64,000 nucleotides of DNA from assembly GCA_964016885.1 (NCBI GenBank), contig OZ024744.1, positions 43,214,001 through 43,278,000 on the forward strand, in the 5' to 3' direction. The DNA is from Eledone cirrhosa. Taxonomy: Eukaryota. Shown in pieces: positions 18,708 through 63,778 of this stretch. Every line of letters starts with the position of its first letter. Positions within the stretch are counted from its first letter, which is position 1. Below the pieces are notes generated by a model, which ran no database searches, was not told the origin of the DNA, and saw only the letters and a list, made by a program, of their open reading frames with translations. The position numbers and the translations under genes are program-made.

Positions 18708-18745
<38 letters not shown>

Positions 18746-20495
18746 GATTTAAATATAGAGAGAAAGGATAAATTACTGAATAACTTATTAGATGATGTTC
18801 AAATTATAACTTACCCTTTTTAGTTGATATTTTCTCTATTGAAGCAATGCGAGGGGACACTGTAATATGGTCACCTAGAATATATAAACAACATCATAGT
18901 AAACCTACATGTATATATACAAATAACATTACAAATACAGGAAACAGTTATTAGATTCATTATCTCTGATATATACATATATACACCACGTCCAAACATA
19001 TATGGACCAAACTCCCACTGCCACTGCCATTTATATATATATATTTATATATAGTGAAAGGATTCAGGACGCCAACTACTTAGATCCGTAAATATACATT
19101 TACTACTAAATTTTCTATAATCATGGCAACAGTCCTAATAAAGCAAATTTATTCTTACATACACACGCACAGAGATTGCACACACACAAACTCACACTCA
19201 CACAAACACAAACAGAGCTCACACACACTCAAAAAAGCATCACCGGTGAAACACACCCAAACAGGTACACAATGAATTAATATACAACCCAATATACCTA
19301 TATGTATACATCAACATACACATAATACCAACATCACTTCACTTATATATGTACACACAATTTTATTCAATAGGTCCACCATACACATTACATAAACTTA
19401 GAATGTATACAAATATACAATATAACGTCAATTTGATATAATGTTGAAATATGTGTAATAGTTTTCTGTACTAACTGGTAGGAATCGGTTTGAAATACAA
19501 CTTACTTTCTTTTGATCCACCTCTTATGTGTGTGCCTGAGTCAGAGACAAGGATCTCTACAGGAGTCACACCTGGAAAAAATATACAGAAGAAAAGAATA
19601 ATAAAAGCTAGAAGGCTTTCTTGAGAAGAGTTTGTTGTCAAGTTGAAGAAAGGGTAGAATGAGTTGTCATTTGTTTAATCAACTAGATCAAATTATACGG
19701 TTTGATCTCTCAAGGACATGCTTACTTTTCCCACAAATCTAAAACTTCCAAAAAGAGTAAAGTGTGGTTAGTCATATTTGGGATGTCTTGAATTATGAGA
19801 GAAACATTCTACAGTTTCCTACTGGTCCTTAAAATCAGATTTATATAGTGGTTTACCAAATATTTAGGGTACTGGCAGATGTAGTGGAGAAGAGGATGCA
19901 GCATATGAACAATGAAGGGTGACAAGAAATTGTGAAGAACTGTAGGATAAAATCTTGATAAAGAAGAGAATACTGATCTCTGAAATAATTCAATCTAACT
20001 CAATGAATCTAGTGTAACATTTATCTTCTCATTTGAATCACATGTAATGTCATTCTTTCTCAGCTATCTCTGATAATGCCCTAAAAAAGTCTAGCTATAC
20101 TTTTGTCATCATTACAAGGTCTTTGAGAAAGTCAATAAAATGTTTATTCTGGATTATTTTATGGAGGTTGTAATAGAGAGTTTGATATTGTTGACTGAAT
20201 TAAGTAGTTATAAATTTACTGTTGAAAACCTAAATAAGTTACTGAATAACTTATTACATGATGTTTAAATTATAACTTACGCTTTTGAGAAGTTTCAGGC
20301 TTCATTGCAGCACTGGGAGGGTACACGGTAATATGGTCACCTAGAATATATAAACAACATCATAGTAAACCTACATGTATATATATAAAAAACATTACAA
20401 ATACATGGAATCAGTTATTAGATTGATTATCTCTGATATATAGATATATACACCAGGTGCAAAGACATATGGACCAAACTCCCACTGTCCCTCGC

Positions 20496-20552
<57 letters not shown>

Positions 20553-23001
20553 CAAATAACGAAACGAAATTAAATTTCGTTTCGTTTGTAACTCACTTTT
20601 GTATGACTGACGCTTAAACAATTAAGTTAAAAATGTACATCCACATATGTATACTGAAATACTAGTATGCATATGAATACACACACGTGTACATATGTAG
20701 ATGTACCGAGTTTTTCACTGGACACTTTACTGTGAGTGTCCAGCTATTCTGTATGTAAACACACAGACAAACCGGTTTTTAGAGTCATACTGGTTTTCGA
20801 GGAAACACCTTTCCTCTATTCTGCAGAAAGCCAGACAAGGAATATTGGACTAGTTTCGATGTTGTTACATCTCATCAGCAATATTTACCTATCTTCCGGC
20901 CTTTCTAGAGAATCGTAAAAGCACATATCGTTATATGCTTTTTCTATGAAAATTAGTAGTGGGCAGACTAATTTGCATAGAGCGTGAGTACGTACCGGTT
21001 CAGCGGAGACGATAAAAACAAATAACGAAACGAAATTAAATTTTGTTTCGTTTGTAACTCACTTTTGTATGACTGACGCTTAAACAATTAAGTTAAAAAT
21101 GTACATCCACATATGTATACTGAAATACTAGTATGCATATGAATACACACACGTGTACATATGTAGATGTACCGAGTTTTTCACTGGACACTTTACTGTG
21201 AGTGTCCAGCTATTCTGTATGTAAACACACAGACAAACCGGTTTTTATATATATTTATATATAGAGAGAATGGATAAATTACTGAATAACTTATTAGATG
21301 ATGTTCAAACTATAACTTACCCTTTTTAGTTGATTTTGGCTCCATTGAAGCAATGCGAGGGGACTGTGTAATATGGTCACCTAGAATATATAAACAAAAT
21401 CATAGTAAACCTACATGTATATATACAAATAACATTACAAATACAGGAAACAGTTATTAGATTCATTATCTCTGATATATACATATATACACCAGGTCCA
21501 AACATATATGGACCAAACTCCCACTGCCACTGCCATTTATATATATATATTTATATATAGTGAAAGGATTCAGGACGCCAACTACTTAGATCCGTAAATA
21601 TACATTTACTACTAAATTTTCTATAATCATGGCAACAGTCCTAATAAAGCAAATTTATTCTTACATACACACGCACAGAGATTGCACACACACAAATTCA
21701 CACTCACACAAACACAAACAGAGCTCACACACACTCAAAAAAGCATCACCGGTGAAACACACCCAAACAGGTACACAATGAATTAATATACAACCCAATA
21801 TACCTATATGTATACATCAACATACACATAATACCAACATCACTTCACTTATATATGTACACACAATTTTATTCAATAGGTCCACCATACACATTACATA
21901 AACTTAGAATGTATACAAATATACAATATAACGTCAATTTGATATAATGTTGAAATATGTGTAATAGTTTTCTGTACTAACTGGTAGGAATGGGTTTGAA
22001 ATATAACTTACTTTCTTTTGATCCACCTCTTATGTGTGTGCCTGAGTCAGAGACAAGGATCTCTACAGGAGTCACACCTGGAAAAAATATACAGAAGAAA
22101 AGAATAATAAAAGCTAGAAGGCTTTCTTGAGAAGAGTTTGTTGTCAAGTTGAAGAAAGGGTAGAATGAGTTGTCATTTGTTTAATCAACTAGATCAAATT
22201 ATACGGTTTGATCTCTCAAGGACATGCTTACTTTTCCCACAAATCTAAAACTTCCAAAAAGAGTAAAGTGTGGTTAGTCATATTTGGGATGTCTTGAATT
22301 ATGAGAGAAACATTCTACAGTTTCCTACTGGTCCTTAAAATCAGATTTATATAGTGGTTTACCAAATATTTAGGGTACTGGCAGATGTAGTGGAGAAGAG
22401 GATGCAGCATATGAACAATGAAGGGTGACAAGAAATTGTGAAGAACTGTAGGATAAAATCTTGATAAAGAAGAGAATACTGATCTCTGAAATAATTCAAT
22501 CTAACTCAATGAATCTAGTGTAACATTTATCTTCTCATTTGAATCACATGTAATGTCATTCTTTCTCAGCTATCTCTGATAATGCCCTAAAAAAGTCTAG
22601 CTATACTTTTGTCATCATTACAAGGTCTTTGAGAAAGTCAATAAAATGTTTATTCTGGATTATTTTATGGAGGTTGTAATAGAGAGTTTGATATTGTTGA
22701 CTGAATTAAGTAGTTATAAATTTACTGTTGAAAACCTAAATAAGTTACTGAATAACTTATTACATGATGTTTAAATTATAACTTACGCTTTTGAGAAGTT
22801 TCAGGCTTCATTGCAGCACTGGGAGGGTACACGGTAATATGGTCACCTAGAATATATAAACAACATCATAGTAAACCTACATGTATATATATAAAAAACA
22901 TTACAAATACATGGAATCAGTTATTAGATTGATTATCTCTGATATATAGATATATACACCAGGTGCAAAGACATATGGACCAAACTCCCACTGTCCCTCG
23001 C

Positions 23002-23054
<53 letters not shown>

Positions 23055-25507
23055 AAAACAAATAACGAAACGAAATTAAATTTCGTTTCGTTTGTAACTC
23101 ACTTTTGTATGACTGACGCTTAAACAATTAAGTTAAAAATGTACATCCACATATGTATACTGAAATACTAGTATGCATATGAATACACACACGTGTACAT
23201 ATGTAGATGTACCGAGTTTTTCACTGGACACTTTACTGTGAGTGTCCAGCTATTCTGTATGTAAACACACAGACAAACCGGTTTTTAGAGTCATACTGGT
23301 TTTCGAGGAAACACCTTTCCTCTATTCTGCAGAAAGCCAGACAAGGAATATTGGACTAGTTTCGATGTTGTTACATCTCATCAGCAATATTTACCTATCT
23401 TCCGGCCTTTCTAGAGAATCGTAAAAGCACATATCGTTATATGCTTTTTCTATGAAAATTAGTAGTGGGCAGACTAATTTGCATAGAGCGTGAGTACGTA
23501 CCGGTTCAGCGGAGACGATAAAAACAAATAACGAAACGAAATTAAATTTTGTTTCGTTTGTAACTCACTTTTGTATGACTGACGCTTAAACAATTAAGTT
23601 AAAAATGTACATCCACATATGTATACTGAAATACTAGTATGCATATGAATACACACACGTGTACATATGTAGATGTACCGAGTTTTTCACTGGACACTTT
23701 ACTGTGAGTGTCCAGCTATTCTGTATGTAAACACACAGACAAACCGGTTTTTATATATATTTATATATAGAGAGAATGGATAAATTACTGAATAACTTAT
23801 TAGATGATGTTCAAACTATAACTTACCCTTTTTAGTTGATTTTGGCTCCATTGAAGCAATGCAAGGGGACTGTGTAATATGGTCACCTAGAATATATAAA
23901 CAAAATCATAGTAAACCTACATGTATATATACAAATAACATTACAAATACAGGAAACAGTTATTAGATTCATTATCTCTGATATATACATATATACACCA
24001 GGTCCAAACATATATGGACCAAACTCCCACTGCCACTGCCATTTATATATATATATTTATATATAGTGAAAGGATTCAGGACGCCAACTACTTAGATCCG
24101 TAAATATACATTTACTACTAAATTTTCTATAATCATGGCAACAGTCCTAATAAAGCAAATTTATTCTTACATACACACGCACAGAGATTGCACACACACA
24201 AACTCACACTCACACAAACACAAACAGAGCTCACACACACTCAAAAAAGCATCACCGGTGAAACACACCCAAACAGGTACACAATGAATTAATATACAAC
24301 CCAATATACCTATATGTATACATCAACATACACATAATACCAACATCACTTCACTTATATATGTACACACAATTTTATTCAATAGGTCCACCATACACAT
24401 TACATAAACTTAGAATGTATACAAATATACAATATAACGTCAATTTGATATAATGTTGAAATATGTGTAATAGTTTTCTGTACTAACTGGTAGGAATGGG
24501 TTTGAAATATAACTTACTTTCTTTTGATCCACCTCTTATGTGTGTGCCTGAGTCAGAGACAAGGATCTCTACAGGAGTCACACCTGGAAAAAATATACAG
24601 AAGAAAAGAATAATAAAAGCTAGAAGGCTTTCTTGAGAAGAGTTTGTTGTCAAGTTGAAGAAAGGGTAGAATGAGTTGTCATTTGTTTAATCAACTAGAT
24701 CAAATTATACGGTTTGATCTCTCAAGGACATGCTTACTTTTCCCACAAATCTAAAACTTCCAAAAAGAGTAAAGTGTGGTTAGTCATATTTGGGATGTCT
24801 TGAATTATGAGAGAAACATTCTACAGTTTCCTACTGGTCCTTAAAATCAGATTTATATAGTGGTTTACCAAATATTTAGGGTACTGGCAGATGTAGTGGA
24901 GAAGAGGATGCAGCATATGAACAATGAAGGGTGACAAGAAATTGTGAAGAACTGTAGGATAAAATCTTGATAAAGAAGAGAATACTGATCTCTGAAATAA
25001 TTCAAACTACCTCAATGAATCTTGTGCAACATTTATCTTCTCATTTGAATCACATGTAATGTCATTCATTCTCAGCTATCTCTGATAATGCCCTAAAAAA
25101 GTCTAGTTATAATTTTGTCATCATTAAAAGGTCTTTGAGGAAGTCAATAAAATGTTTATTCTGGATTATTTTATGGAGGTTGTAATAGAGAGTTTGATAT
25201 TGTTGACTGAATTAAGTAGTTATGAATTTACTGTTGAAAACCTAAATAAGTTACTGAATAACTTATTACATGATGTTTAAATTATAACTTACTCTTTTGA
25301 GTAGTTTCAGACTTCATTGCAGCACTGGGAGGGTACACGGTAATATGGTCACCTAGAATATATAAACAACATCATAGTAAACCTACATGTATATATATAA
25401 AAAACATTACAAATACATGGAATCAGTTATTAGATTGATTATCTCTGATATATAGATATATACACCAGGTGCAAAGACATATGGACCAAACTCCCACTGT
25501 CCCTCGC

Positions 25508-25541
<34 letters not shown>

Positions 25542-27296
25542 ATATATATTTATATATAGAGAGAATGGATAAATTACTGAATAACTTATTAGATGATGTT
25601 CAAACTATAACTTACCCTTTTTAGTTGATTTTGCCTCCATTGAAGCAATGCGAGGGGACTGTGTAATATGGTCACCTAGAATATATAAACAAAATCATAG
25701 TAAACCTACATGTATATATACAAATAACATTACAAATACAGGAAACAGTTATTAGATTTATTATCTCTGATATATACATATATACACCAGGTCCAAACAT
25801 ATATGGACCAAACTCCTACTGCCACTGCCATTTATATATATATATTTATATATAGTGAAAGGATTCAGGACGCCAACTACTTAGATCCGTAAATATACAT
25901 TTACTACTAAATTTTCTATAATCATGGCAACAGTCCTAATAAAGCAAATTTATTCTTACATACACACACACAGAGATTGCACACTCACAAACTCACACTC
26001 ACACAAACACAAACAGGGCTCACACACACTCAAAAAAGCATCACCGGTGAAACACACCCAAACAGGTACACAATGAATTAATATACAACCCAATATACCT
26101 ATATGTATACATCAACATACACATAATACCAACATCACTTCACTTATATATGTACACACAATTTTATTCAATGGGTCCACCTAACACATTACATAAACTT
26201 AGAATGTATACAGATATACAATATAACGTCAATTTGATATTAATGTTGAAACACGTGTAATAGTTTTCTGTACTAACTGGTAGGAATCGGTTTGAAATAC
26301 AACTTACTTTCTTTTGATCCACCTCTTATGTGTGTGCCTGAGTCAGAGACAAGGATCTCTACAGGAGTCACACCTGGAAAAATATACAGAAGAAAAGAAT
26401 AATAAAAGCTAGAAGGCTTTCTTGAGAAGAGTTTGTTGTCAAGTTGAAGAAAGGGTAGAATGAGTTGTCATTTGTTTAATCAACTAGATCAAATTATACG
26501 GTTTGATCTCTCAAGGACATGCTTACTTTTCCCACAAATCTAAAACTTCCAAAAAGAGTAAAGTGTGGTTAGTCATATTTGGGATGTCTTGAATTATGAG
26601 AGAAACATTCTACAGTTTCCTACTGGTCCTTAAAATCAGATTTATATAGTGGTTTACCAAATATTTAGGGTACTGGCAGATGTAGTGGAGAAGAGGATGC
26701 AGCATATGAACAATGAAGGGTGACAAGAAATTGTGAAGAACTGTAGGATAAAATCTTGATAAAGAAGAGAATACTGATCTCTGAAATAATTCAAACTACC
26801 TCAATGAATCTTGTGCAACATTTATCTTCTCATTTGAATCACATGTAATGTCATTCATTCTCAGCTATCTCTGATAATGCCCTAAAAAAGTCTAGTTATA
26901 ATTTTGTCATCATTAAAAGGTCTTTGAGGAAGTCAATAAAATGTTTATTCTGGATTATTTTATGGAGGTTGTAATAGAGAGTTTGATATTGTTGACTGAA
27001 TTAAGTAGTTATGAATTTACTGTTGAAAACCTAAATAAGTTACTGAATAACTTATTACATGATGTTTAAATTATAACTTACTCTTTTGAGTAGTTTCAGA
27101 CTTCATTGCAGCACTGGGAGGGTACACGGTAATATGGTCACCTAGAATATATAAACAACATCATAGTAAACCTACATGTATATATATAAAAAACATTACA
27201 AATACATGGAATCAGTTATTAGATTGATTATCTCTGATATATAGATATATACACCAGGTGCAAAGACATATGGACCAAACTCCCACTGTCCCTCGC

Positions 27297-27330
<34 letters not shown>

Positions 27331-29070
27331 ATATATATTTATATATAGAGAGAATGGATAAATTACTGAATAACTTATTAGATGATGTTCAAACTATAAC
27401 TTACCCTTTTTAGTTGATTTTGCCTCCATTGAAGCAATGCGAGGGGACTGTGTAATATGGTCACCTAGAATATATAAACAAAATCATAGTAAACCTACAT
27501 GTATATATACAAATAACATTACAAATACAGGAAACAGTTATTAGATTTATTATCTCTGATATATACATATATACACCAGGTCCAAACATATATGGACCAA
27601 ACTCCTACTGCCACTGCCATTTATATATATATATTTATATATAGTGAAAGGATTCAGGACGCCAACTACTTAGATCCGTAAATATACATTTACTACTAAA
27701 TTTTCTATAATCATGGCAACAGTCCTAATAAAGCAAATTTATTCTTACATACACACACACAGAGATTGCACACTCACAAACTCACACTCACACAAACACA
27801 AACAGGGCTCACACACACTCAAAAAAGCATCACAGGTGAAACACACCCAAACAGGTACACAATGAATTAATATACAACCCAATATACCTATATGTATACA
27901 TCAACATACACATAATACCAACATCACTTCACTTATATATGTACACACAATTTTATTCAATGCGTCCACCTAACACATTACATAAACTTAGAATGTATAC
28001 AGATATACAATATAACGTCAATTTGATATTAATGTTGAAACACGTGTAATAGTTTTCTGTACTAACTGGTAGGAATCGGTTTGAAATACAACTTACTTTC
28101 TTTTGATCCACCTCTTATGTGTGTGCCTGAGTCAGAGACAAGGATCTCTACAGGAGTCACACCTGGAAAAATATACAGAAGAAAAGAATAATAAAAGCTA
28201 GAAGGCTTTCTTGAGAAGAGTTTGTTGTCAAGTTGAAGAAAGGGTAGAATGAGTTGTCATTTGTTTAATCAACTAGATCAAATTATACGGTTTGTTCTCT
28301 CAAGGACATGCTTACTTTTCCCACAAATCTAAAACTTACAAAAGGAGTAAAGTGTGGTTAGTCTTGAATTATGAGAGAAACATTCTACAGTTTCCTACTG
28401 GTCCTTAAAATCAGATTTATATAGTGGTTTACCAAATATTTAGGGTACTGGCAGATGTAGTGGAGAAGAGGATGCAGCATATGAACAATGAAGGGTGACA
28501 AGAAATTGTGAAGAACTGTAGGATAAAATTTGATAAAGAAGAGAATACTGATCTCTGAAATAATTCAATCTAACTCAATGAATCTAGTGTAACATTTATC
28601 TTCTCATTTGAATCACATGTAATGTCATTCTTTCTCAGTTATCTCTGATAATGCCCTAAAAAAGTCTAGCTATACTTTTGTCATCATTAAAAGGTCTTTG
28701 AGGAAGTCAATAAAATGTTTATTCTGGATTATTTTATGGAGGTTGTAATAGAGAGTTTGATATTGTTGACTGAATTAAGTAGTTATAAATTTACTGTTGA
28801 AAACCTAAATAAGTTACTGAATAACTTATTACATGATGTTTAAATTATAACTTACGCTTTTGAGAAGTTTCAGGCTTCATTGCAGCACTGGGAGGGTACA
28901 CGGTAATATGGTCACCTAGAATATATAAACAACATCATAGTAAACCTACATGTATATATATAAAAAACATTACAAATACATGGAATCAGTTATTAGATTG
29001 ATTATCTCTGATATATAGATATATACACCAGGTGCAAAGACATATGGACCAAACTCCCACTGTCCCTCGC

Positions 29071-29129
<59 letters not shown>

Positions 29130-30867: not shown

Positions 30868-30920
<53 letters not shown>

Positions 30921-33373: not shown

Positions 33374-33407
<34 letters not shown>

Positions 33408-35162: not shown

Positions 35163-35196
<34 letters not shown>

Positions 35197-36936: not shown

Positions 36937-36999
<63 letters not shown>

Positions 37000-38723: not shown

Positions 38724-38788
<65 letters not shown>

Positions 38789-42292: not shown

Positions 42293-42326
<34 letters not shown>

Positions 42327-44066: not shown

Positions 44067-44129
<63 letters not shown>

Positions 44130-45853: not shown

Positions 45854-45916
<63 letters not shown>

Positions 45917-47640: not shown

Positions 47641-47703
<63 letters not shown>

Positions 47704-49427: not shown

Positions 49428-49490
<63 letters not shown>

Positions 49491-51214: not shown

Positions 51215-51277
<63 letters not shown>

Positions 51278-53014: not shown

Positions 53015-53056
<42 letters not shown>

Positions 53057-54780
53057 GAGAGAATGGATAAATTACTGAATAACTTATTAGATGATGTTCA
53101 AACTATAACTTACCCTTTTTAGTTGATTTTGCCTCCATTGAAGCAATGCGAGGGGACTGTGTAATATGGTCACCTAGAATATATAAACAAAATCATAGTA
53201 AACCTACATGTATATATACAAATAACATTACAAATACAGGAAACAGTTATTAGATTTATTATCTCTGATATATACATATATACACCAGGTCCAAACATAT
53301 ATGGACCAAACTCCTACTGCCACTGCCATTTATATATATATATTTATATATAGTGAAAGGATTCAGGACGCCAACTACTTAGATCCGTAAATATACATTT
53401 ACTACTAAATTTTCTATAATCATGGCAACAGTCCTAATAAAGCAAATTTATTCTTACATACACACACACAGAGATTGCACACTCACAAACTCACACTCAC
53501 ACAAACACAAACAGGGCTCACACACACTCAAAAAAGCATCACCGGTGAAACACACCCAAACAGGTACACAATGAATTAATATACAACCCAATATACCTAT
53601 ATGTATACATCAACATACACATAATACCAACATCACTTCACTTATATATGTACACACAATTTTATTCAATGGGTCCACCTAACACATTACATAAACTTAG
53701 AATGTATACAGATATACAATATAACGTCAATTTGATATTAATGTTGAAACACGTGTAATAGTTTTCTGTACTAACTGGTAGGAATCGGTTTGAAATACAA
53801 CTTACTTTCTTTTGATCCACCTCTTATGTGTGTGCCTGAGTCAGAGACAAGGATCTCTACAGGAGTCACACCTGGAAAAATATACAGAAGAAAAGAATAA
53901 TAAAAGCTAGAAGGCTTTCTTGAGAAGAGTTTGTTGTCAAGTTGAAGAAAGGGTAGAATGAGTTGTCATTTGTTTAATCAACTAGATCAAATTATACGGT
54001 TTCTTCTCTCAAGGACATGCTTACTTTTCCCACAAATCTAAAACTTACAAAAGGAGTAAAGTGTGGTTAGTCTTGAATTATGAGAGAAACATTCTACAGT
54101 TTCCTACTGGTCCTTAAAATCAGATTTATATAGTGGTTTACCAAATATTTAGGGTACTGGCAGATGTAGTGGAGAAGAGGATGCAGCATATGAACAATGA
54201 AGGGTGACAAGAAATTGTGAAGAACTGTAGGATAAAATCTTGATAAAGAAGAGAATACTGATCTCTGAAATAATTCAATCTAACTCAATGAATCTAGTGT
54301 AACATTTATCTTCTCATTTGAATCACATGTAATGTCATTCTTTCTCAGTTATCTCTGATAATGCCCTAAAAAAGTCTAGCTATACTTTTGTCATCATTAA
54401 AAGGTCTTTGAGGAAGTCAATAAAATGTTTATTCTGGATTATTTTATGGAGGTTGTAATAGAGAGTTTGATATTGTTGACTGAATTAAGTAGTTATAAAT
54501 TTACTGTTGAAAACCTAAATAAGTTACTGAATAACTTATTACATGATGTTTAAATTATAACTTACGCTTTTGAGAAGTTTCAGGCTTCATTGCAGCACTG
54601 GGAGGGTACACGGTAATATGGTCACCTAGAATATATAAATAACATCATAGTAAACCTACATGTATATATATAAAAAACATTACAAATACATGGAATCAGT
54701 TATTAGATTGATTATCTCTGATATATAGATATATACACCAGGTGCAAAGACATATGGACCAAACTCCCACTGTCCCTCGC

Positions 54781-54843
<63 letters not shown>

Positions 54844-56566
54844 GAGAGAATGGATAAATTACTGAATAACTTATTAGATGATGTTCAAACTATAACTTAC
54901 CCTTTTTAGTTGATTTTGCCTCCATTGAAGCAATGCGAGGGGACTGTGTAATATGGTCACCTAGAATATATAAACAAAATCATAGTAAACCTACATGTAT
55001 ATATACAAATAACATTACAAATACAGGAAACAGTTATTAGATTTATTATCTCTGATATATACATATATACACCAGGTCCAAACATATATGGACCAAACTC
55101 CTACTGCCACTGCCATTTATATATATATATTTATATATAGTGAAAGGATTCAGGACGCCAACTACTTAGATCCGTAAATATACATTTACTACTAAATTTT
55201 CTATAATCATGGCAACAGTCCTAATAAAGCAAATTTATTCTTACATACACACACACAGAGATTGCACACTCACAAACTCACACTCACACAAACACAAACA
55301 GGGCTCACACACACTCAAAAAAGCATCACCGGTGAAACACACCCAAACAGGTACACAATGAATTAATATACAACCCAATATACCTATATGTATACATCAA
55401 CATACACATAATACCAACATCACTTCACTTATATATGTACACACAATTTTATTCAATGGGTCCACCTAACACATTACATAAACTTAGAATGTATACAGAT
55501 ATACAATATAACGTCAATTTGATATTAATGTTGAAACACGTGTAATAGTTTTCTGTACTAACTGGTAGGAATCGGTTTGAAATACAACTTACTTTCTTTT
55601 GATCCACCTCTTATGTGTGTGCCTGAGTCAGAGACAAGGATCTCTACAGGAGTCACACCTGGAAAAATATACAGAAGAAAAGAATAATAAAAGCTAGAAG
55701 GCTTTCTTGAGAAGAGTTTGTTGTCAAGTTGAAGAAAGGGTAGAATGAGTTGTCATTTGTTTAATCAACTAGATCAAATTATACGGTTTGTTCTCTCAAG
55801 GACATGCTTACTTTTCCCACAAATCTAAAACTTACAAAAGGAGTAAAGTGTGGTTAGTCTTGAATTATGAGAGAAACATTCTACAGTTTCCTACTGGTCC
55901 TTAAAATCAGATTTATATAGTGGTTTACCAAATATTTAGGGTACTGGCAGATGTAGTGGAGAAGAGGATGCAGCATATGAACAATGAAGGGTGACAAGAA
56001 ATTGTGAAGAACTGTAGGATAAAATTTGATAAAGAAGAGAATACTGATCTCTGAAATAATTCAATCTAACTCAATGAATCTAGTGTAACATTTATCTTCT
56101 CATTTGAATCACATGTAATGTCATTCTTTCTCAGTTATCTCTGATAATGCCCTAAAAAAGTCAAGCTATACTTTTGTCATCATTAAAAGGTCTTTGAGGA
56201 AGTCAATAAAATGTTTATTCTGGATTATTTTATGGAGGTTGTAATAGAGAGTTTGATATTGTTGACTGAATTAAGTAGTTATAAATTTACTGTTGAAAAC
56301 CTAAATAAGTTACTGAATAACTTATTACATGATGTTTAAATTATAACTTACGCTTTTGAGAAGTTTCAGGCTTCATTGCAGCACTGGGAGGGTACACGGT
56401 AATATGGTCACCTAGAATATATAAACAACATCATAGTAAACCTACATGTATATATATAAAAAACATTACAAATACATGGAATCAGTTATTAGATTGATTA
56501 TCTCTGATATATAGATATATACACCAGGTGCAAAGACATATGGACCAAACTCCCACTGTCCCTCGC

Positions 56567-56629
<63 letters not shown>

Positions 56630-58338
56630 GAGAGAATGGATAAATTACTGAATAACTTATTAGATGATGTTCAAACTATAACTTACCCTTTTTAGTTGAT
56701 TTTGCCTCCATTGAAGCAATGCGAGGGGACTGTGTAATATGGTCACCTAGAATATATAAACAAAATCATAGTAAACCTACATGTATATATACAAATAACA
56801 TTACAAATACAGGAAACAGTTATTAGATTTATTATCTCTGATATATACATATATACACCAGGTCCAAACATATATGGACCAAACTCCTACTGCCACTGCC
56901 ATTTATATATATATATTTATATATAGTGAAAGGATTCAGGACGCCAACTACTTAGATCCGTAAATATACATTTACTACTAAATTTTCTATAATCATGGCA
57001 ACAGTCCTAATAAAGCAAATTTATTCTTACATACACACACACAGAGATTGCACACTCACACAAACACAAACAGGGCTCACACACACTCAAAAAAGCATCA
57101 CCGGTGAAACACACCCAAACAGTTACACAATGAATTAATATACAACCCAATATACCTATATGTATACATCAACATACACATAATACCAACATCACTTCAC
57201 TTATATATGTACACACAATTTTATTCAATGGGTCCACCTAACACATTACATAAACTTAGAATGTATACAGATATACAATATAACGTCAATTTGATATTAA
57301 TGTTGAAACACGTGTAATAGTTTTCTGTACTAACTGGTAGGAATCGGTTTGAAATACAACTTACTTTCTTTTGATCCACCTCTTATGTGTGTGCCTGAGT
57401 CAGAGACAAGGATCTCTACAGGAGTCACACCTGGAAAAATATACAGAAGAAAAGAATAATAAAAGCTAGAAGGCTTTCTTGAGAAGAGTTTGTTGTCAAG
57501 TTGAAGAAAGGGTAGAATGAGTTGTCATTTGTTTAATCAACTAGATCAAATTATACGGTTTGTTCTCTCAAGGACATGCTTACTTTTCCCACAAATCTAA
57601 AACTTACAAAAGGAGTAAAGTGTGGTTAGTCTTGAATTATGAGAGAAACATTCTACAGTTTCCTACTGGTCCTTAAAATCAGATTTATATAGTGGTTTAC
57701 CAAATATTTAGGGTACTGGCAGATGTAGTGGAGAAGAGGATGCAGCATATGAACAATGAAGGGTGACAAGAAATTGTGAAGAACTGTAGGATAAAATTTG
57801 ATAAAGAAGAGAATACTGATCTCTGAAATAATTCAATCTAACTCAATGAATCTAGTGTAACATTTATCTTCTCATTTGAATCACATGTAATGTCATTCTT
57901 TCTCAGTTATCTCTGATAATGCCCTAAAAAAGTCTAGCTATACTTTTGTCATCATTAAAAGGTCTTTGAGGAAGTCAATAAAATGTTTATTCTGGATTAT
58001 TTTATGGAGGTTGTAATAGAGAGTTTGATATTGTTGACTGAATTAAGTAGTTATAAATTTACTGTTGAAAACCTAAATAAGTTACTGAATAACTTATTAC
58101 ATGATGTTTAAATTATAACTTACGCTTTTGAGAAGTTTCAGGCTTCATTGCAGCACTGGGAGGGTACACGGTAATATGGTCACCTAGAATATATAAATAA
58201 CATCATAGTAAACCTACATGTATATATATAAAAAACATTACAAATACATGGAATCAGTTATTAGATTGATTATCTCTGATATATAGATATATACACCAGG
58301 TGCAAAGACATATGGACCAAACTCCCACTGTCCCTCGC

Positions 58339-58401
<63 letters not shown>

Positions 58402-60110
58402 GAGAGAATGGATAAATTACTGAATAACTTATTAGATGATGTTCAAACTATAACTTACCCTTTTTAGTTGATTTTGCCTCCATTGAAGCAATGCGAGGGG
58501 ACTGTGTAATATGGTCACCTAGAATATATAAACAAAATCATAGTAAACCTACATGTATATATACAAATAACATTACAAATACAGGAAACAGTTATTAGAT
58601 TTATTATCTCTGATATATACATATATACACCAGGTCCAAACATATATGGACCAAACTCCTACTGCCACTGCCATTTATATATATATATTTATATATAGTG
58701 AAAGGATTCAGGACGCCAACTACTTAGATCCGTAAATATACATTTACTACTAAATTTTCTATAATCATGGCAACAGTCCTAATAAAGCAAATTTATTCTT
58801 ACATACACACACACAGAGATTGCACACTCACACAAACACAAACAGGGCTCACACACACTCAAAAAAGCATCACCGGTGAAACACACCCAAACAGTTACAC
58901 AATGAATTAATATACAACCCAATATACCTATATGTATACATCAACATACACATAATACCAACATCACTTCACTTATATATGTACACACAATTTTATTCAA
59001 TGGGTCCACCTAACACATTACATAAACTTAGAATGTATACAGATATACAATATAACGTCAATTTGATATTAATGTTGAAACACGTGTAATAGTTTTCTGT
59101 ACTAACTGGTAGGAATCGGTTTGAAATACAACTTACTTTCTTTTGATCCACCTCTTATGTGTGTGCCTGAGTCAGAGACAAGGATCTCTACAGGAGTCAC
59201 ACCTGGAAAAATATACAGAAGAAAAGAATAATAAAAGCTAGAAGGCTTTCTTGAGAAGAGTTTGTTGTCAAGTTGAAGAAAGGGTAGAATGAGTTGTCAT
59301 TTGTTTAATCAACTAGATCAAATTATACGGTTTGTTCTCTCAAGGACATGCTTACTTTTCCCACAAATCTAAAACTTACAAAAGGAGTAAAGTGTGGTTA
59401 GTCTTGAATTATGAGAGAAACATTCTACAGTTTCCTACTGGTCCTTAAAATCAGATTTATATAGTGGTTTACCAAATATTTAGGGTACTGGCAGATGTAG
59501 TGGAGAAGAGGATGCAGCATATGAACAATGAAGGGTGACAAGAAATTGTGAAGAACTGTAGGATAAAATTTGATAAAGAAGAGAATACTGATCTCTGAAA
59601 TAATTCAATCTAACTCAATGAATCTAGTGTAACATTTATCTTCTCATTTGAATCACATGTAATGTCATTCTTTCTCAGTTATCTCTGATAATGCCCTAAA
59701 AAAGTCTAGCTATACTTTTGTCATCATTAAAAGGTCTTTGAGGAAGTCAATAAAATGTTTATTCTGGATTATTTTATGGAGGTTGTAATAGAGAGTTTGA
59801 TATTGTTGACTGAATTAAGTAGTTATAAATTTACTGTTGAAAACCTAAATAAGTTACTGAATAACTTATTACATGATGTTTAAATTATAACTTACGCTTT
59901 TGAGAAGTTTCAGGCTTCATTGCAGCACTGGGAGGGTACACGGTAATATGGTCACCTAGAATATATAAACAACATCATAGTAAACCTACATGTATATATA
60001 TAAAAAACATTACAAATACATGGAATCAGTTATTAGATTGATTATCTCTGATATATAGATATATACACCAGGTGCAAAGACATATGGACCAAACTCCCAC
60101 TGTCCCTCGC

Positions 60111-60173
<63 letters not shown>

Positions 60174-63100
60174 GAGAGAATGGATAAATTACTGAATAAC
60201 TTATTAGATGATGTTCAAACTATAACTTACCCTTTTTAGTTGATTTTGCCTCCATTGAAGCAATGCGAGGGGACTGTGTAATATGGTCACCTAGAATATA
60301 TAAACAAAATCATAGTAAACCTACATGTATATATACAAATAACATTACAAATACAGGAAACAGTTATTAGATTTATTATCTCTGATATATACATATATAC
60401 ACCAGGTCCAAACATATATGGACCAAACTCCTACTGCCACTGCCATTTATATATATATATTTATATATAGTGAAAGGATTCAGGACGCCAACTACTTAGA
60501 TCCGTAAATATACATTTACTACTAAATTTTCTATAATCATGGCAACAGTCCTAATAAAGCAAATTTATTCTTACATACACACACACAGAGATTGCACACT
60601 CACAAACTCACACTCACACAAACACAAACAGGGCTCACACACACTCAAAAAAGCATCACCGGTGAAACACACCCAAACAGGTACACAATGAATTAATATA
60701 CAACCCAATATACCTATATGTATACATCAACATACACATAATACCAACATCACTTCACTTATATATGTACACACAATTTTATTCAATGGGTCCACCTAAC
60801 ACATTACATAAACTTAGAATGTATACAGATATACAATATAACGTCAATTTGATATTAATGTTGAAACACGTGTAATAGTTTTCTGTACTAACTGGTAGGA
60901 ATCGGTTTGAAATACAACTTACTTTCTTTTGATCCACCTCTTATGTGTGTGCCTGAGTCAGAGACAAGGATCTCTACAGGAGTCACACCTGGAAAAATAT
61001 ACAGAAGAAAAGAATAATAAAAGCTAGAAGGCTTTCTTGAGAAGAGTTTGTTGTCAAGTTGAAGAAAGGGTAGAATGAGTTGTCATTTGTTTAATCAACT
61101 AGATCAAATTATACGGTTTGTTCTCTCAAGGACATGCTTACTTTTCCCACAAATCTAAAACTTACAAAAGGAGTAAAGTGTGGTTAGTCTTGAATTATGA
61201 GAGAAACATTCTACAGTTTCCTACTGGTCCTTAAAATCAGATTTATATAGTGGTTTACCAAATATTTAGGGTACTGGCAGATGTAGTGGAGAAGAGGATG
61301 CAGCATATGAACAATGAAGGGTGACAAGAAATTGTGAAGAACTGTAGGATAAAATTTGATAAAGAAGAGAATACTGATCTCTGAAATAATTCAATCTAAC
61401 TCAATGAATCTAGTGTAACATTTATCTTCTCATTTGAATCACATGTAATGTCATTCTTTCTCAGTTATCTCTGATAATGCCCTAAAAAAGTCAAGCTATA
61501 CTTTTGTCATCATTAAAAGGTCTTTGAGGAAGTCAATAAAATGTTTATTCTGGATTATTTTATGGAGGTTGTAATAGAGAGTTTGATATTGTTGACTGAA
61601 TTAAGTAGTTATAAATTTACTGTTGAAAACCTAAATAAGTTACTGAATAACTTATTACATGATGTTTAAATTATAACTTACGCTTTTGAGAAGTTTCAGG
61701 CTTCATTGCAGCACTGGGAGGGTACACGGTAATATGGTCACCTAGAATATATAAACAACATCATAGTAAACCTACATGTATATATATAAAAAACATTACA
61801 AATACATGGAATCAGTTATTAGATTGATTATCTCTGATATATAGATATATACACCAGGTGCAAAGACATATGGACCAAACTCCCACTGTCCCTCGCATAT
61901 ATATATATTTATATATAGAGAGAATGGATAAATTACTGAATAACTTATTAGATGATGTTCAAACTATAACTTACCCTTTTTAGTTGATTTTGCCTCCATT
62001 GAAGCAATGCGAGGGGACTGTGTAATATGGTCACCTAGAATATATAAACAAAATCATAGTAAACCTACATGTATATATACAAATAACATTACAAATACAG
62101 GAAACAGTTATTAGATTTATTATCTCTGATATATACATATATACACCAGGTCCAAACATATATGGACCAAACTCCTACTGCCACTGCCATTTATATATAT
62201 ATATTTATATATAGTGAAAGGATTCAGGACGCCAACTACTTAGATCCGTAAATATACATTTACTACTAAATTTTCTATAATCATGGCAACAGTCCTAATA
62301 AAGCAAATTTATTCTTACATACACACACACAGAGATTGCACACTCACAAACTCACACTCACACAAACACAAACAGGGCTCACACAAACTCAAAAAAGCAT
62401 CACCGGTGAAACACACCCAAACAGGTACACAATGAATTAATATACAACCCAATATACCTATATGTATACATCAACATACACATAATACCAACATCACTTC
62501 ACTTATATATGTACACACAATTTTATTCAATGGGTCCACCTAACACATTACATAAACTTAGAATGTATACAGATATACAATATAACGTCAATTTGATATT
62601 AATGTTGAAACACGTGTAATAGTTTTCTGTACTAACTGGTAGGAATCGGTTTGAAATACAACTTACTTTCTTTTGATCCACCTCTTATGTGTGTGCCTGA
62701 GTCAGAGACAAGGATCTCTACAGGAGTCACACCTGGAAAAATATACAGAAGAAAAGAATAATAAAAGCTAGAAGGCTTTCTTGAGAAGAGTTTGTTGTCA
62801 AGTTGAAGAAAGGGTAGAATGAGTTGTCATTTGTTTAATCAACTAGATCAAATTATACGGTTTGTTCTCTCAAGGACATGCTTACTTTTCCCACAAATCT
62901 AAAACTTACAAAAGGAGTAAAGTGTGGTTAGTCTTGAATTATGAGAGAAACATTCTACAGTTTCCTACTGGTCCTTAAAATCAGATTTATATAGTGGTTT
63001 ACCAAATATTTAGGGTACTGGCAGATGTAGTGGAGAAGAGGATGCAGCATATGAACAATGAAGGGTGACAAGAAATTGTGAAGAACTGTAGGATAAAATT

Positions 63101-63778
63101 TGATAAAGAAGAGAATACTGATCTCTGAAATAATTCAATCTAACTCAATGAATCTAGTGTAACATTTATCTTCTCATTTGAATCACATGTAATGTCATTC
63201 TTTCTCAGTTATCTCTGATAATGCCCTAAAAAAGTCTAGCTATACTTTTGTCATCATTAAAAGGTCTTTGAGGAAGTCAATAAAATGTTTATTCTGGATT
63301 ATTTTATGGAGGTTGTAATAGAGAGTTTGATATTGTTGACTGAATTAAGTAGTTATAAATTTACTGTTGAAAACCTAAATAAGTTACTGAATAACTTATT
63401 ACATGATGTTTAAATTATAACTTACGCTTTTGAGAAGTTTCAGGCTTCATTGCAGCACTGGGAGGGTACACGGTAATATGGTCACCTAGAATATATAAAC
63501 AACATCATAGTAAACCTACATGTATATATATAAAAAACATTACAAATACATGGAATCAGTTATTAGATTGATTATCTCTGATATATAGATATATACACCA
63601 GGTGCAAAGACATATGGACCAAACTCCCACTGTCCCTCGCATATATATATATTTATATATAGAGAGAATGGATAAATTACTGAATAACTTATTAGATGAT
63701 GTTCAAACTATAACTTACCCTTTTTAGTTGATTTTGCCTCCATTGAAGCAATGCGAGGGGACTGTGTAATATGGTCAC
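1501..63778 (-). CDS. Predicted giant multi-micro-exon gene (5' end outside the window) encoding a S/T/P/K-rich tandem-repeat protein; ~82 exons of 60 or 66 nt
   Basis: Each exon is bounded on the minus strand by a pyrimidine-rich acceptor (ttttgtttatatattctag or ttttcttctgtatattttttccag) and a GTAAGT donor. Lengths are exact multiples of 3, all phase 1-1, and manual splicing gives an open frame. A-type exon low coordinates: 18815, 21321, 23827, 25616, 27405, 29187, 31693, 33482, 35271, 37057, 38846, 40612, 42401, 44187, 45974, 47761, 49548, 51335, 53114, 54901, 56687, 58459, 60231, 61975, 63719. No transcript evidence is available. Confidence 0.8.
1813..1872 (-). CDS. Last repeat micro-exon: DHIALSPRIASMKPEPTKK
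   Basis: 60 nt, ctag/gtaagt boundaries, open frame. Confidence 0.72.
1983..2250 (+). mobile_element. RTE 3'-UTR fragment with (GAT)n tail
   Basis: ggttggtgttaggaagggcatccagc...gttaaacgatgatgat is shared with the RTE 3' ends at 5510-5783 and 10900-11190. Confidence 0.8.
2326..4522 (+). mobile_element. 5'-truncated RTE-clade LINE (RT, Cys-rich segment, 3' UTR, GAT tail); premature stop
   Basis: FVDLEKAFDRV, GVHQGSVLSPLLF and LLYADDL RT motifs; RLRWYGHVMR...GRPKMTW RTE C-terminus; (TA)n on both sides. Confidence 0.93.
4875..4934 (-). CDS. Diverged micro-exon A: DHITVSPRSASIKPKSTKK
   Basis: 60 nt, canonical splice sites; an RTE fragment begins ~13 nt from the acceptor. Confidence 0.7.
4947..5783 (+). 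mobile_element. Short RTE 3' fragment interrupted by a SINE
   Basis: RQSINELSEKLGIRGIRCC...YGH / MRMKDDS...GRPRKTW followed by the GAT tail. Confidence 0.85.
5040..5217 (-). mobile_element. tRNA-derived SINE nested in an RTE
   Basis: Minus-strand A-box-like TGGCAGTATCGG and B-box GAGTTCAAATCC, followed by the core ccgaggttgactttgcctttcatcc. Confidence 0.82.
5888..5947 (-). pseudogene. Micro-exon A copy with an in-frame stop: DHIAVSPRIASIEK*
   Basis: 60 nt with intact splice sites, but reads GAG AAA TAA where 18815-18874 reads GAG AAA ATA. Confidence 0.65.
6185..6244 (-). CDS. Diverged micro-exon A: DHITVAPRMASMEQKSTKK
   Basis: 60 nt, canonical splice sites, open frame. Confidence 0.75.
6487..6546 (-). 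CDS. Diverged micro-exon A: DHITVSPRSAPIKPKSTKK
   Basis: 60 nt, canonical splice sites, open frame. Confidence 0.75.
6600..6787 (-). mobile_element. tRNA-derived SINE with a 16-bp target-site duplication
   Basis: A and B boxes as above; TSD tatatatacaaataac at 6584-6599 and 6788-6803. Confidence 0.88.
7254..7727 (+). mobile_element. Probable LINE ORF1 remnant (CR1/L2-type)
   Basis: GC-richer insert reading KVIAIGVPED.../LGRRSPKPRLIRLSF, reminiscent of ORF1 IxGVPE...RLG...PRxIxxxF motifs; frameshifted. Confidence 0.5.
7966..8025 (-). CDS. Diverged micro-exon: DHIAVSPRIASLKTEPTKK
   Basis: 60 nt, ctag/gtaagt boundaries; duplicate of 1813-1872. Confidence 0.72.
8135..8407 (+). mobile_element. 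RTE 3'-UTR fragment (duplicate of 1983-2250)
   Basis: Same sequence at the same intronic position within a duplicated block. Confidence 0.8.
8467..8951 (-). mobile_element. RTE 3'-end fragment, inverted relative to 8973-11190
   Basis: Reverse complement of ~10710-11190; ORF-track entries 8557+ and 10888- give nearly the same peptide. Confidence 0.88.
8973..11190 (+). mobile_element. 5'-truncated RTE LINE, second subfamily
   Basis: RT motifs in 9068..10051 and 10061..10798, separated by one in-frame TGA; (GAT)n tail. Confidence 0.93.
11249..11308 (-). CDS. Diverged micro-exon A: DHITVSPISAVMEPKSTKM
   Basis: 60 nt, canonical splice sites, open frame. Confidence 0.8.
11945..12010 (-). CDS. 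Diverged micro-exon C: MTLAAIFVSQTDTLIKGGSKE
   Basis: 66 nt, ccag/gtaagt boundaries; same frame as the start of ORF-track entry 11748..12008. Confidence 0.8.
12042..12225 (-). mobile_element. tRNA-derived SINE
   Basis: A and B boxes plus core; array units show the empty site gaaaagaataataaaagctag. Confidence 0.85.
12906..12965 (-). CDS. Diverged micro-exon B: DHITVSPPSAAMKPEATEK
   Basis: 60 nt, canonical splice sites, same flanking intron as array exon B. Confidence 0.8.
13461..13500 (-). ncRNA. Hammerhead-like motif in the PLE terminal repeat (degenerate)
   Basis: CUGACGA U GUUGCA-GAUG-UGCAAC GAAA GAUU UA; good stem II, weak stem I. Confidence 0.5.
15001..15040 (+). ncRNA. Hammerhead-like motif in the PLE terminal repeat (degenerate)
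   Basis: ctgacga t gctgca-gatg-tgcaac gaaa gatt ta; one stem II mismatch. Confidence 0.42.
15337..18710 (-). mobile_element. Near full-length RTE LINE (APE endonuclease plus RT), pseudogenised
   Basis: LRVGTINVSTM...DVCCVQETRW APE motif, WWNNKVDEAV linker, RT motifs and GAT tail; same subfamily as 2326-4522; several stops and frameshifts. Confidence 0.93.
18815..18874 (-). CDS. Micro-exon A at the array edge: DHITVSPRIASIEKISTKK
   Basis: 60 nt, ctag/gtaagt boundaries, open in phase 1. Confidence 0.8.
19506..19571 (-). CDS. Representative micro-exon C (66 nt): (R)VTPVEILVSDSGTHIRGGSKE
   Basis: Minus strand: ttttccag|GTGTGACTCCTGTAGAGATCCTTGTCTCTGACTCAGGCACACACATAAGAGGTGGATCAAAAGAAA|gtaagt. 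Confidence 0.85.
20281..20340 (-). CDS. Representative micro-exon B (60 nt): (G)DHITVYPPSAAMKPETSQK
   Basis: Minus strand: ttctag|GTGACCATATTACCGTGTACCCTCCCAGTGCTGCAATGAAGCCTGAAACTTCTCAAAAGC|gtaagt; paralogous to exon A. Confidence 0.85.
20547..21246 (-). mobile_element. Non-autonomous retrozyme/PLE-like insertion: 1.5 copies of a 466-bp unit (234-bp direct repeats)
   Basis: 20547-20780 is repeated at 21013-21246 with one visible mismatch; inserted in a TA tract; hammerhead motif in the middle. Confidence 0.78.
20841..20885 (-). ncRNA. Minimal type I hammerhead ribozyme
   Basis: AAUAUUG CUGAUGA GAUGU-AACA-ACAUC GAAA CUAG UC^CAAUAUU: complete core, 7-bp stem I, 5-bp stem II, palindromic minimal stem III. 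Confidence 0.85.
21321..21380 (-). CDS. Representative micro-exon A (60 nt): (S)DHITQSPRIASMEPKSTKK
   Basis: Minus strand: ttctag|GTGACCATATTACACAGTCCCCTCGCATTGCTTCAATGGAGCCAAAATCAACTAAAAAGG|gtaagt. Confidence 0.85.
23053..23752 (-). mobile_element. Retrozyme-like insertion, copy 2
   Basis: Same sequence, offset +2506 from copy 1. Confidence 0.78.
23347..23391 (-). ncRNA. Minimal type I hammerhead ribozyme, copy 2
   Basis: Identical to 20841-20885. Confidence 0.85.
30919..31618 (-). mobile_element. Retrozyme-like insertion, copy 3
   Basis: Same sequence, offset +7866 from copy 2. Confidence 0.78.
31213..31257 (-). ncRNA. Minimal type I hammerhead ribozyme, copy 3
   Basis: Identical to 20841-20885. 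Confidence 0.85.

Follow-up and report, generated by a model that had tools for sequence, protein, structure and literature searches.

A satellite-like array in Eledone cirrhosa as part of a candidate multigene family of same-phase micro-exons

The stretch of Eledone cirrhosa DNA analysed here (64,000 nucleotides of contig OZ024744.1, positions 43,214,001 to 43,278,000; hereafter the window) is likely, taking our best explanation as a whole, to belong to a lineage-restricted multigene family, as the 3' half of one of its members. The short minus-strand segments that recur throughout its satellite-like array are supported, from the sequence, as exons of a protein-coding gene whose splicing and expression are predicted. 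This reading rests upon the presence of start and stop exons, the pairing of the two in 16 of 17 copies, the retention of exon length, phase and splice sites, and a depletion of stop codons specific to one frame.

The exon array and the gene model

A sequence-only reading of the window had described 73 minus-strand segments, in units of 60, 60 and 66 nt, that are flanked by AG and GTAAGT and free of stops in phase 1, and all 73 were recovered. Specifically, a homogeneous array at 18815..63778 (minus strand, as are all exons below) holds 49 segments of 60 nt and 24 of 66 nt, arranged as 24 A-B-C cassettes plus one diverged A, each with AG in front and GTAAGT behind. When these phase 1-1 segments are joined from 63778 to 18815, their 4,524 nt give 1,508 codons and zero stops, in agreement with the roughly 1,500 aa proposed earlier; the three junction words suggested at that time likewise agree with the exon ends. 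Examples are exon A at 63719..63778 (60 nt, AG and GTAAGT), exon B at 63426..63485 (60 nt) and exon C at 62667..62732 (66 nt), exon B being a paralogue of exon A with a near-identical acceptor. Dinucleotide-block shuffles of one unit produced at least three AG-(60|66)-GTAAGT patterns in 1 of 5,000 trials, a control in which the script scored the real unit as two patterns, not three, the unit having been cut at the edge of exon C. The B-C intron of most units also holds a fourth GTAAGT without a matching acceptor.

The 1.8-kb unit is near-identical over about 90 copies. The description of every unit as ~1.79 kb fits 61 of the 87 C-to-C spacings in the whole array, which measure ~1.8 kb, but not the others, which extend from ~1.5 to ~6.6 kb (~1.7 kb in nine cases, ~2.3 kb in 12, ~2.5 kb in three, and ~1.5 and ~6.6 kb in one each). 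Nine diverged exons follow between positions 12965 and 1813. A B-type exon (12906..12965) lies behind a 5.8-kb intron carrying an RTE-type LINE and is succeeded by a C-type exon (11945..12010) and by A-type exons at 11249..11308, 7966..8025, 6487..6546 (the first member of a local 297-bp triplet), 6185..6244, 5888..5947, 4875..4934 and 1813..1872, the last in the window. One of the nine, at 5947-5888, has intact splice sites and an in-frame TAA.

The count of 73 exons holds for the window, but the whole array is about four times larger, with 286 exon hits. The corresponding gene model spans 224 kb on the minus strand. It begins with a 73-codon start exon whose donor is phase 1 (C28:43418130-43417911), continues through the 286 repeat-exon hits, and ends in a short stop exon with its acceptor at C28:43194172; 195 of the hits lie past the right window edge, reaching G000:C28:43408604, and nine past the left edge, down to G000:C28:43195489. 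The 5' exon that the sequence-only reading had placed beyond the window was therefore found, and the phase of its donor agrees with that of the repeat exons. A long-ORF scan of 344 kb listed the start exon together with frames of transposons and simple repeats, and none of the frames listed had a recognisable host domain. Comparison of paralogue flanks gave no sign of a further conserved coding exon between the head and the first repeat exon, with the qualification that among close paralogues it could not mark exons, the duplications being mostly 90-98% identical. In three sequencing runs (one study, one sample) compared with one unit, contigs span introns and exons alike and behave as DNA, with no joint at exon borders and one joint going back 1746; these runs may derive from the assembly's own sample, and hence do not represent independent support.

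Family members and selection on the frame

The earlier view of a single gene stood with respect to the gene and missed the family to which it belongs. The genome holds 17 start exons and 20 terminal-exon matches, and for 16 of the 17 start exons a stop exon follows on the same strand, 51-224 kb downstream. Every member read opens with a start exon encoding a basic head (~75 aa), continues through a series of 60/66-nt phase 1-1 exons, and closes with a short stop exon; family-wide, repeat exons measure 54-66 nt and number from a few up to 286 per gene. Of the 210 distinct hits that have both splice sites, 205 are a multiple of three in length, a figure favoured by the method, which looked for the donor close to where the exon should end. 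The start exon is intact in the four close paralogues. In the copy at C28 34.0-34.1 Mb the start exon is intact, 31 of 36 repeat exons are intact and five are splice-dead, and no spliceable exon is disrupted. Other copies are damaged: the one at 46.47 Mb has a TGA within its start exon, those at 46.5 Mb and 45.28 Mb carry frameshifts, and that at 28.8 Mb combines a frameshifted start exon with splice-dead sites in two of four repeat exons.

A second, diverged subfamily retains the exon lengths of 60/66 nt, the phase and the splice signals (85-94% identical), whereas its identity to the window subfamily is 62-64% in exons and 76-80% in introns. The amplified block also varies by copy, being a 3-exon block of 1.8 kb in the window, a 2-exon block of 1.4 kb in a C18 copy, and a 5-6-exon block of ~3.9 kb in another. 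To judge from these sequences, genes of this family grow by copying blocks of exons, and the two subfamilies amplified different cassettes independently.

Tree-based counts of substitutions point to selection on the reading frame, although they come from the minimum spanning tree of copies that have undergone gene conversion and are not fully independent. Across the family, two stop gains were observed in the phase-1 frame among 458 changes against 17.5 expected (P=3e-6), and the five other frames show no depletion; a conservative count, in which each distinct change was taken once and splice-dead copies were kept, gave three against 10.8 expected among 284 changes (P=0.005). The substitution tests left out rows with an HMM score <55 or a length other than 60/66 nt, and splice-dead copies were left out of the first stop-gain test and of dN/dS. 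The latter is about 0.8-1.6 (0.81-1.59; synonymous deficit P=0.22), such that there is no amino-acid constraint and no signal of residue-level function. Exons outpace introns in divergence, with pS elevated too. CpG decay was rejected as the cause of the start exon's excess divergence, with 8 of 31 differences at CpG against 40 of 220 sites. Selection would, on these counts, maintain an open frame and not particular residues.

These same data bear upon whether the array is translated at all, and whether the window copy still is. That the array is non-coding, as a satellite or an lncRNA whose motifs only resemble splice sites and whose translation is not under selection, deserves scarcely any credence: a dN/dS of about 1 and the failure to find a head homologue count in its favour, but stop depletion occurs only in the frame set by the phase-1 donor of the start exon, and ATG and stop exons are paired in all but one of the 17 copies. 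A far more serious possibility, which we would put somewhat short of even, is that the family is coding but the window copy is a pseudogene or encodes a truncated protein of ~1,000 aa, the window's 73 exons being a neutrally amplifying satellite of former exons; this is compatible with a coding family. In the window copy, 4 of 286 exons are spliceable yet disruptive, and three of these, upstream of the window, are frameshifted (C28:43377530, 43365514 and 43361936), such that translation with every spliceable exon kept ends at 1,019 aa, before the window, with the first stop after 46 exons. The TAA at 5947-5888 points the same way, as does a 2-nt deletion common to two units, which suggests a real, amplified mutation. 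Furthermore, substitutions and indels within the homogeneous array fall alike in exons and introns: exons take up 21 of 229 substitutions and 2 of 24 distinct indels (indels P=0.48) while making up 11% of the sequence, and are thus protected no better than introns. The earlier observation that all indels noticed lay in introns was accurate for the window (0 of 5 exonic) but is not significant as coding evidence (P=0.55). Against loss of function, 278 of the 286 exon hits are intact, as are the start and stop exons; symmetric exons can be freely skipped; and the +1 frameshift sits in an A run and could reflect an assembly error or a single allele. Skipping the three frameshifted exons gives a model of about 5,800 aa (5,813 aa). 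The proposal that a giant protein arose through macrosatellite-like amplification of a three-exon cassette is therefore supported as regards coding exons and cassette amplification, but not as regards a giant product of the window copy, which may be broken before the window begins; the 170 kb by which this copy recently expanded may largely reflect the neutral run-away of a tolerant cassette.

The predicted protein and its possible roles

The head is predicted to form helices at residues 3-25 and 27-47, with low confidence past about residue 50 and on only five sequences. Pro-Cys-Tyr-Arg is invariant in all five aligned heads. Its hydrophobic moment is 0.68-0.73, a value reached by about 4% of shuffles. 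No signal peptide or hydrophobic stretch was found in exon 1, since the maximum 15-residue hydropathy of two heads is 0.31 and -0.03, and the protein would on this ground be intracellular. No folded domain was found beyond the two-helix head. The repeats of both subfamilies consist of 33-34% S+T+P, 14-16% K+R, 12-13% D+E and 2-5% W+F+Y+C, and this composition, along with hydropathy, suggests a disordered tail rich in Ser, Thr, Pro and Lys, of tunable length and with many candidate Ser/Thr-Pro phosphorylation sites. Overall, the product is probably a floppy protein. Protein homologue searches covered the head, single repeat exons falling below the 40-aa minimum, and found no homologue among 73 candidates of 129-2000 aa with a paralogue's head as query and no usable match in the Atlas. 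A weak match among 1.84 billion representatives (E 3.4e-4) was dismissed as an unrelated fish repeat protein. No Pfam family reached the cut-off for two heads and one C exon, a 21-aa exon being a weak query, and none was Olduvai or ankyrin. The open full-text literature, judged mostly by title and summary and with subscription journals and supplements outside its scope, gave no description of this gene family.

Internal exons that are all multiples of three and share one phase would allow blocks to be added, removed or skipped with the frame kept. Different blocks have probably been amplified in different copies through unequal crossing-over and gene conversion, and whole genes have probably spread by segmental duplication. 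At the level of the protein, we tentatively favour, at somewhat less than an even chance, a head that would tether to the cytoplasmic face of a membrane through its amphipathic basic helix and an acylated cysteine, and a tail that would act as a phosphorylation-controlled brush or spacer, by analogy probably in cells of the germ line or skin; the anchoring, the acylation and the choice of tissue are all purely inferred. A bolder version seems to us rather unlikely, namely that a previously undescribed octopod family converged on the NBPF strategy and went beyond it. Its genes would hold up to ~280 interchangeable, same-phase micro-exons, and copy-number differences between alleles, together with combinatorial skipping within cells, would vary the length and sequence of the products. 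These would be disordered polymers reaching ~5,800 aa, tethered to a membrane and tuned by phosphorylation, in which selection favours length and diversity over sequence, and they would act in a tissue engaged in an arms race (gametes, skin or neurons).

Other roles must be weighed against membrane tethering. A nuclear or chromatin protein, for example of spermatids, is rather unlikely; its basic head would be an NLS or a DNA/RNA-binding helix and its Ser-Pro-Arg repeats would bind DNA or be CDK-switched. SPKK/SPRK motifs are known from sperm histones, the first 40 head residues include 17-18 Lys/Arg, and the 5,813-aa model has a pI of 9.5 and 92 [ST]-P-[RK] motifs; in the second subfamily, however, Ser-Pro-Arg is often Ser-Ser-Arg or missing, and the repeat charge given above is near balance. 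Symmetric phase-1 exons encoding S/T/P-rich repeats are typical of extracellular modules, and a T-rich tract precedes the ATG, as would suit a secreted or surface mucin-like or matrix protein (of skin mucus, or of an egg or spermatophore coat) with its signal peptide on an undetected upstream exon. We regard this as very unlikely, given that exon 1 lacks a hydrophobic stretch, no AG stands immediately before the ATG, A occupies -3 in 6 of 7 aligned copies, no transmembrane, VWD or cystine-knot domain was found at either protein end, and the terminal exon stops after 2-21 residues. Slightly less probable still is that the product is a polyprotein, with one cleavage per cassette yielding many identical peptides, as furin is reported to do in Olduvai triplets; most A/B exons of the window subfamily do end in Lys-Lys or Lys-Arg and the unit is near-identical across its copies, but the dibasic ends are not retained in the second subfamily, the unit contains no Arg-X-X-Arg, and a signal peptide is lacking.

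Parallels among known repeat genes

The family appears to work like NBPF/Olduvai or NPIP while being a member of neither. The ~65-aa Olduvai domain is described as arising from a doublet of a small and a large exon, with six exons per triplet, furin cutting once per triplet and a disordered product (bioRxiv 10.1101/2021.07.06.450945). As far as that account goes, both systems are duplicated families in which a block of three units is added in tandem within the gene, with no fixed upper limit, and in which 5' and 3' units are conserved on either side of a hyper-amplified middle; a disordered product is reported for Olduvai and predicted here. They differ in that the cephalopod sequences have no similarity to Olduvai in heads or C exon, each unit consists of three single 20-22-codon exons (60/66 nt), its translation lacks a furin site, and subfamilies amplify different blocks. 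NPIP, in the descriptions cited, is an eight-exon gene with a protein-coding VNTR at its C-terminus and clear positive selection (PMC7419210, PMC2812944, PMC3906575). Within those descriptions, NPIP/morpheus and other fast genes in primate segmental duplications resemble our family in their recent paralogues, their variable amino-acid repeats, an ORF kept while sequence changes fast, and exons that outdiverge flanking introns; in the cephalopod genes, unlike NPIP, each repeat is its own exon, the terminal exon is quickly closed by its stop, and synonymous sites are elevated too at the dN/dS given above.

Exons of schistosome MEGs are typically multiples of three. The MEG account cited gives 10-20 exons of 3-81 nt, a signal peptide and proteins of <200 aa (bioRxiv 10.1101/2023.06.21.545858), and on that basis the likeness lies in a lineage-specific short-exon family missed by automatic annotation, with potential exon-skipping variation. 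The cephalopod exon 1, in contrast, encodes no signal peptide, and the repeat exons are homologous to one another and stand in tandem, as many as 286 in one gene. Exon-block structure is also found in ANKRD36/ANKRD30A, LPA, NEB and TTN, which encode folded domains (ankyrin, kringle, Ig/Fn3), and ANKRD36/ANKRD30/POTE-type genes carry N-terminal ankyrin repeats. ANKRD36/ANKRD30A, LPA, NEB and TTN are tabulated, in the source cited, as long intragenic repeats (PMC4079513). As in our family, their coding exons recur in tandem as cassettes that include the introns, but only a two-helix head was found in our family, and it has no ankyrin match. Mucins combine a signal peptide and PTS domain with VWD/cystine-knot or SEA/TM domains; the cephalopod proteins have only 33-34% S+T+P, no signal or TM segment, and no such domain in head or tail. 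Among coleoid tandem arrays, those of reflectins, suckerins and beak proteins are described along with squid arrays lacking similarity to known proteins (PMC9068888), and the present family is, like those described, clustered and cephalopod-restricted, although Pfam matched its head to none of the named three.

Taken together, these findings mean that satellite-like arrays in cephalopod assemblies can conceal whole gene families, here 17 loci, 16 of them spanning 51-224 kb. The family would provide an invertebrate parallel to NBPF/Olduvai and NPIP, with two subfamilies that amplified different exon blocks independently, and would show in clean form how selection can keep a frame open while leaving the residues free. 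Titin has roughly 360 exons; if the full model is spliced, the window gene, with about 280, would be among the most exon-rich genes known.

The micro-exon array and its predicted gene

The exon anatomy reported by the sequence-only reading was recovered in full: 73 segments run in A-B-C order from 63778 to 18815 on the minus strand. Of these, 49 measure 60 nt and 24 measure 66 nt, and every one has a pyrimidine-rich AG on its 5' side and GTAAGT on its 3' side. The proposed phase-1 reading likewise held, as the joined segments give 1,508 codons and zero stops. Beyond the main array, nine more exons, diverged copies of these 60- and 66-nt types, lie at 12965-1813 (minus strand), one of them with an in-frame TAA, and the introns between these exons carry LINE insertions. 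The argument that indels spare exons did not hold: none of five distinct indels in the window is exonic, yet only 11% of the unit is exon (P=0.55); in the whole array, 2 of 24 distinct indels are exonic.

Most units also carry a fourth GTAAGT in the B-C intron (e.g., 62909, minus strand), a possible cryptic donor that has no matching acceptor and is missing from variant units with 708-709-nt introns. Contigs from sequencing runs X1-X3 differ from the unit at 60915-62740 at a few places in nearly all depth (62647, 62386), and frequently contain a 14-nt insertion at 61186; the runs would come from a different individual, or their contigs would show the variant that most units of the array carry.

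Profile searches of 344 kb around the window (C28:43214001-43278000 in the 3.0-Gb assembly G000) returned 286 exon-like matches, every one on the minus strand, in the interval 43408604-43195489; 195 of them lie upstream of the window, 82 within it and 9 downstream. These comprise 278 intact exons, four without a splice site, and four that are spliceable yet frameshifted or stop-bearing. An ATG exon lies upstream at C28:43418130-43417911 (minus strand), ~9 kb above the first repeat; its ATG has an A at -3, and its 73 codons are followed by a GTAAGT donor whose phase, 1, matches that of the repeats. At the other end, ~1.3 kb below the last repeat, an acceptor like those of the repeats (C28:43194172, minus strand) opens a terminal exon with a stop after two residues, followed by an AT-rich stretch containing AATAAA. 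The predicted gene model spans 224 kb; the feature is real, larger and better supported than first described. The first repeat exon (C type, C28:43408604-43408540) has lost its 5' half, as have its counterparts in both 45-Mb copies, apparently through insertion of a non-LTR element.

Introns of the 3' tail contain two RTE-type LINE copies whose reverse-transcriptase frames are interrupted (window 15605-18748, minus strand; 8951-10795, plus strand), and further copies occur in introns of paralogues. A fragment at 13592-14398 (plus strand) looks, from its translation, like part of a Penelope-like element or one of another reverse-transcriptase type. In two paralogues, the terminal exon is followed downstream by a long degenerate short-period satellite (C28:43146700-43181300 and 33984000-33992300), which was duplicated together with the gene.

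A multigene family of uneven integrity

When a paralogue's start exon was used as query, 17 of 22 scored candidates genome-wide were start-exon matches, six at 86-100% identity, ten at 71-73% and one at 57%. The genome holds 20 terminal-exon matches, and a same-strand terminal exon lies 51-224 kb downstream of 16 of the 17 start exons, the 17th being on a small contig. Nine of the 17 loci were read: the outlier, five of the six close-subfamily loci and, in stretches of 60, 50 and 40 kb, parts of three of the ten second-subfamily loci. In close paralogues the exon types follow a similar order, and the exons are far fewer (36 and 63 matches, and 72 for both copies of an inverted pair at 45.14-45.30 Mb together), indicating that, among the loci read, runaway amplification of the 1.8-kb triplet is confined to the window copy. 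The head is the same in the second subfamily, but the amplified blocks differ: a unit of two exons and 1.4 kb on C18, and one of five to six exons (~3.9 kb) at 4.5 Mb on C28.

The inverted pair at C28:45.14-45.30 Mb is a head-to-head duplication of ~97-99% identity. A terminal exon with no start exon detected (C28:44234249, plus strand) and repeat exons that belong to no start-terminal pair (C28 45.47-45.49 and 34.245-34.248 Mb) are probably gene fragments. In the C18 copies, several C-type exons lack a GT donor and are nonetheless tandemly amplified; some contain stops, as expected if such exons are skipped. Separately, molluscan hemocyanin genes are present in at least five copies, each matching seven functional units, at C1:173.74-173.91 Mb and C26:21.93-22.02 Mb, with two weaker matches on C27. 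One functional unit scores 652 bits against the last unit of PDB 6R83 (squid) and 647 against 1JS8 (octopus), compared with at most 502 against 3J32 (abalone). These scores place the animal among the cephalopods, and the set of seven units, characteristic of octopods, makes an octopod probable.

Three exons of the window copy are frameshifted with intact splice sites (C28:43377530, +1 nt; 43365514 and 43361936, -2 nt each). With all spliceable exons included, translation stops after 46 repeat exons (1,019 aa), ~100 kb short of the window; skipping the four disruptive exons gives a model of 5,813 aa (~624 kDa, pI 9.5, 189 Ser/Thr-Pro motifs). In the homogeneous array 21 of 229 substitutions are exonic, so that exons are no better protected than introns. 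As judged from the sequence, the window copy may be broken. The cleanest copy, at 34.0-34.1 Mb, has an intact head and no disrupted spliceable exon among 36 matches, while the 46.5-Mb copy carries a TGA inside the head and two frameshifts. The 28.8-Mb outlier shows a head with a frameshift and only four repeat exons, two of which are splice-dead; it resembles a decayed relic of the pre-amplification state. The family follows birth-and-death evolution.

Constraint on the frame

The two subfamilies agree in exon length (60/66), phase and splice signals. Aligned jointly with gaps, they are 85-94% identical in acceptor and donor regions, 76-80% in introns and 62-64% in exon interiors. Of the 217 full-length exon sequences, the 199 distinct spliceable ones include two with a stop in the phase-1 frame and 55-188 with a stop in each other frame. 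Both the sequence-only reading and the donor of the start exon had set the tested frame in advance. Over the 458 changes on a minimum spanning tree, phase-1 stop gains numbered 2 against 17.5 expected (P=3e-6), as compared with 17/22.8, 21/23.2, 27/27.2, 15/14.5 and 17/20.4 (observed/expected) in the other five frames. Because gene conversion renders tree edges non-independent, each distinct change was recounted once with splice-dead copies kept, which gave 3 gains against 10.8 expected (284 changes, P=0.005) and no depletion in the controls. Selection purges stops. The amino acids themselves are unconstrained, omega being 1.19 and 1.25 on the tree and 0.81-1.59 in pairwise comparisons.

Start exons are 84-86% identical between subfamilies and their flanks 93-99%, with pN of 0.12-0.15 and pS of 0.19-0.28; since synonymous sites are elevated too, positive selection is possible rather than established. 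Over the ~150-170 nt that precede the ATG region the subfamilies are 96-99% identical, against only 85% in the coding exon; the stretch would be a conserved promoter or 5' UTR, or else flanks homogenized by conversion.

Mode of evolution, product and comparison with known families

Because the exons are symmetric, any gain, loss or skip is frame-neutral, and the arrays are amplified block-wise and in concert. Unequal crossing-over and conversion would drive this amplification, and segmental duplication would spread the genes. The head lacks a hydrophobic segment, has 17-18 Lys/Arg in residues 1-40, and is predicted to form two helices broken near an invariant Pro-Cys, the first modestly amphipathic. 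The tail retains the same composition in both subfamilies although its sequence has turned over, as expected for a disordered region. A disordered brush or spacer, tethered to a membrane on its cytoplasmic side, is the tentatively favored product, at somewhat below even chances. A nuclear or chromatin role is unlikely, though deserving of some weight; a secreted mucin is improbable, as is a cleaved polyprotein. One study reports that, among human genes, those duplicated recently and carrying variable internal repeats show enrichment in skin and testis (PMC2812944); this is the one ground on which, by analogy, these tissues might be guessed for the family.

NBPF/Olduvai and NPIP are closest in mode, the former sharing tandem triplet addition within a duplicated family and the latter an open frame, rapid sequence change and variable repeats, whereas schistosome MEGs are alike in exon size only. 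The Olduvai domain, exon doublet and furin site of NBPF, the C-terminal VNTR of NPIP, and the MEG signal peptide are each absent here (see also PMC4079513 and PMC3906575 for context). Protein and domain-family searches with the head as query found no credible homologue, and full-text literature searches found no description of the micro-exon family. An automatic gene model holding the repeat alone may already exist, and unannotated squid arrays mentioned in a supplement may bear on the family (PMC9068888). Judged on genomic data, this is apparently an undescribed cephalopod gene family built almost wholly from amplified symmetric micro-exons. Its kind is known from primates; what seems new is this variant, which lacks any folded domain, reaches 286 exons and has amplified different cassettes independently.
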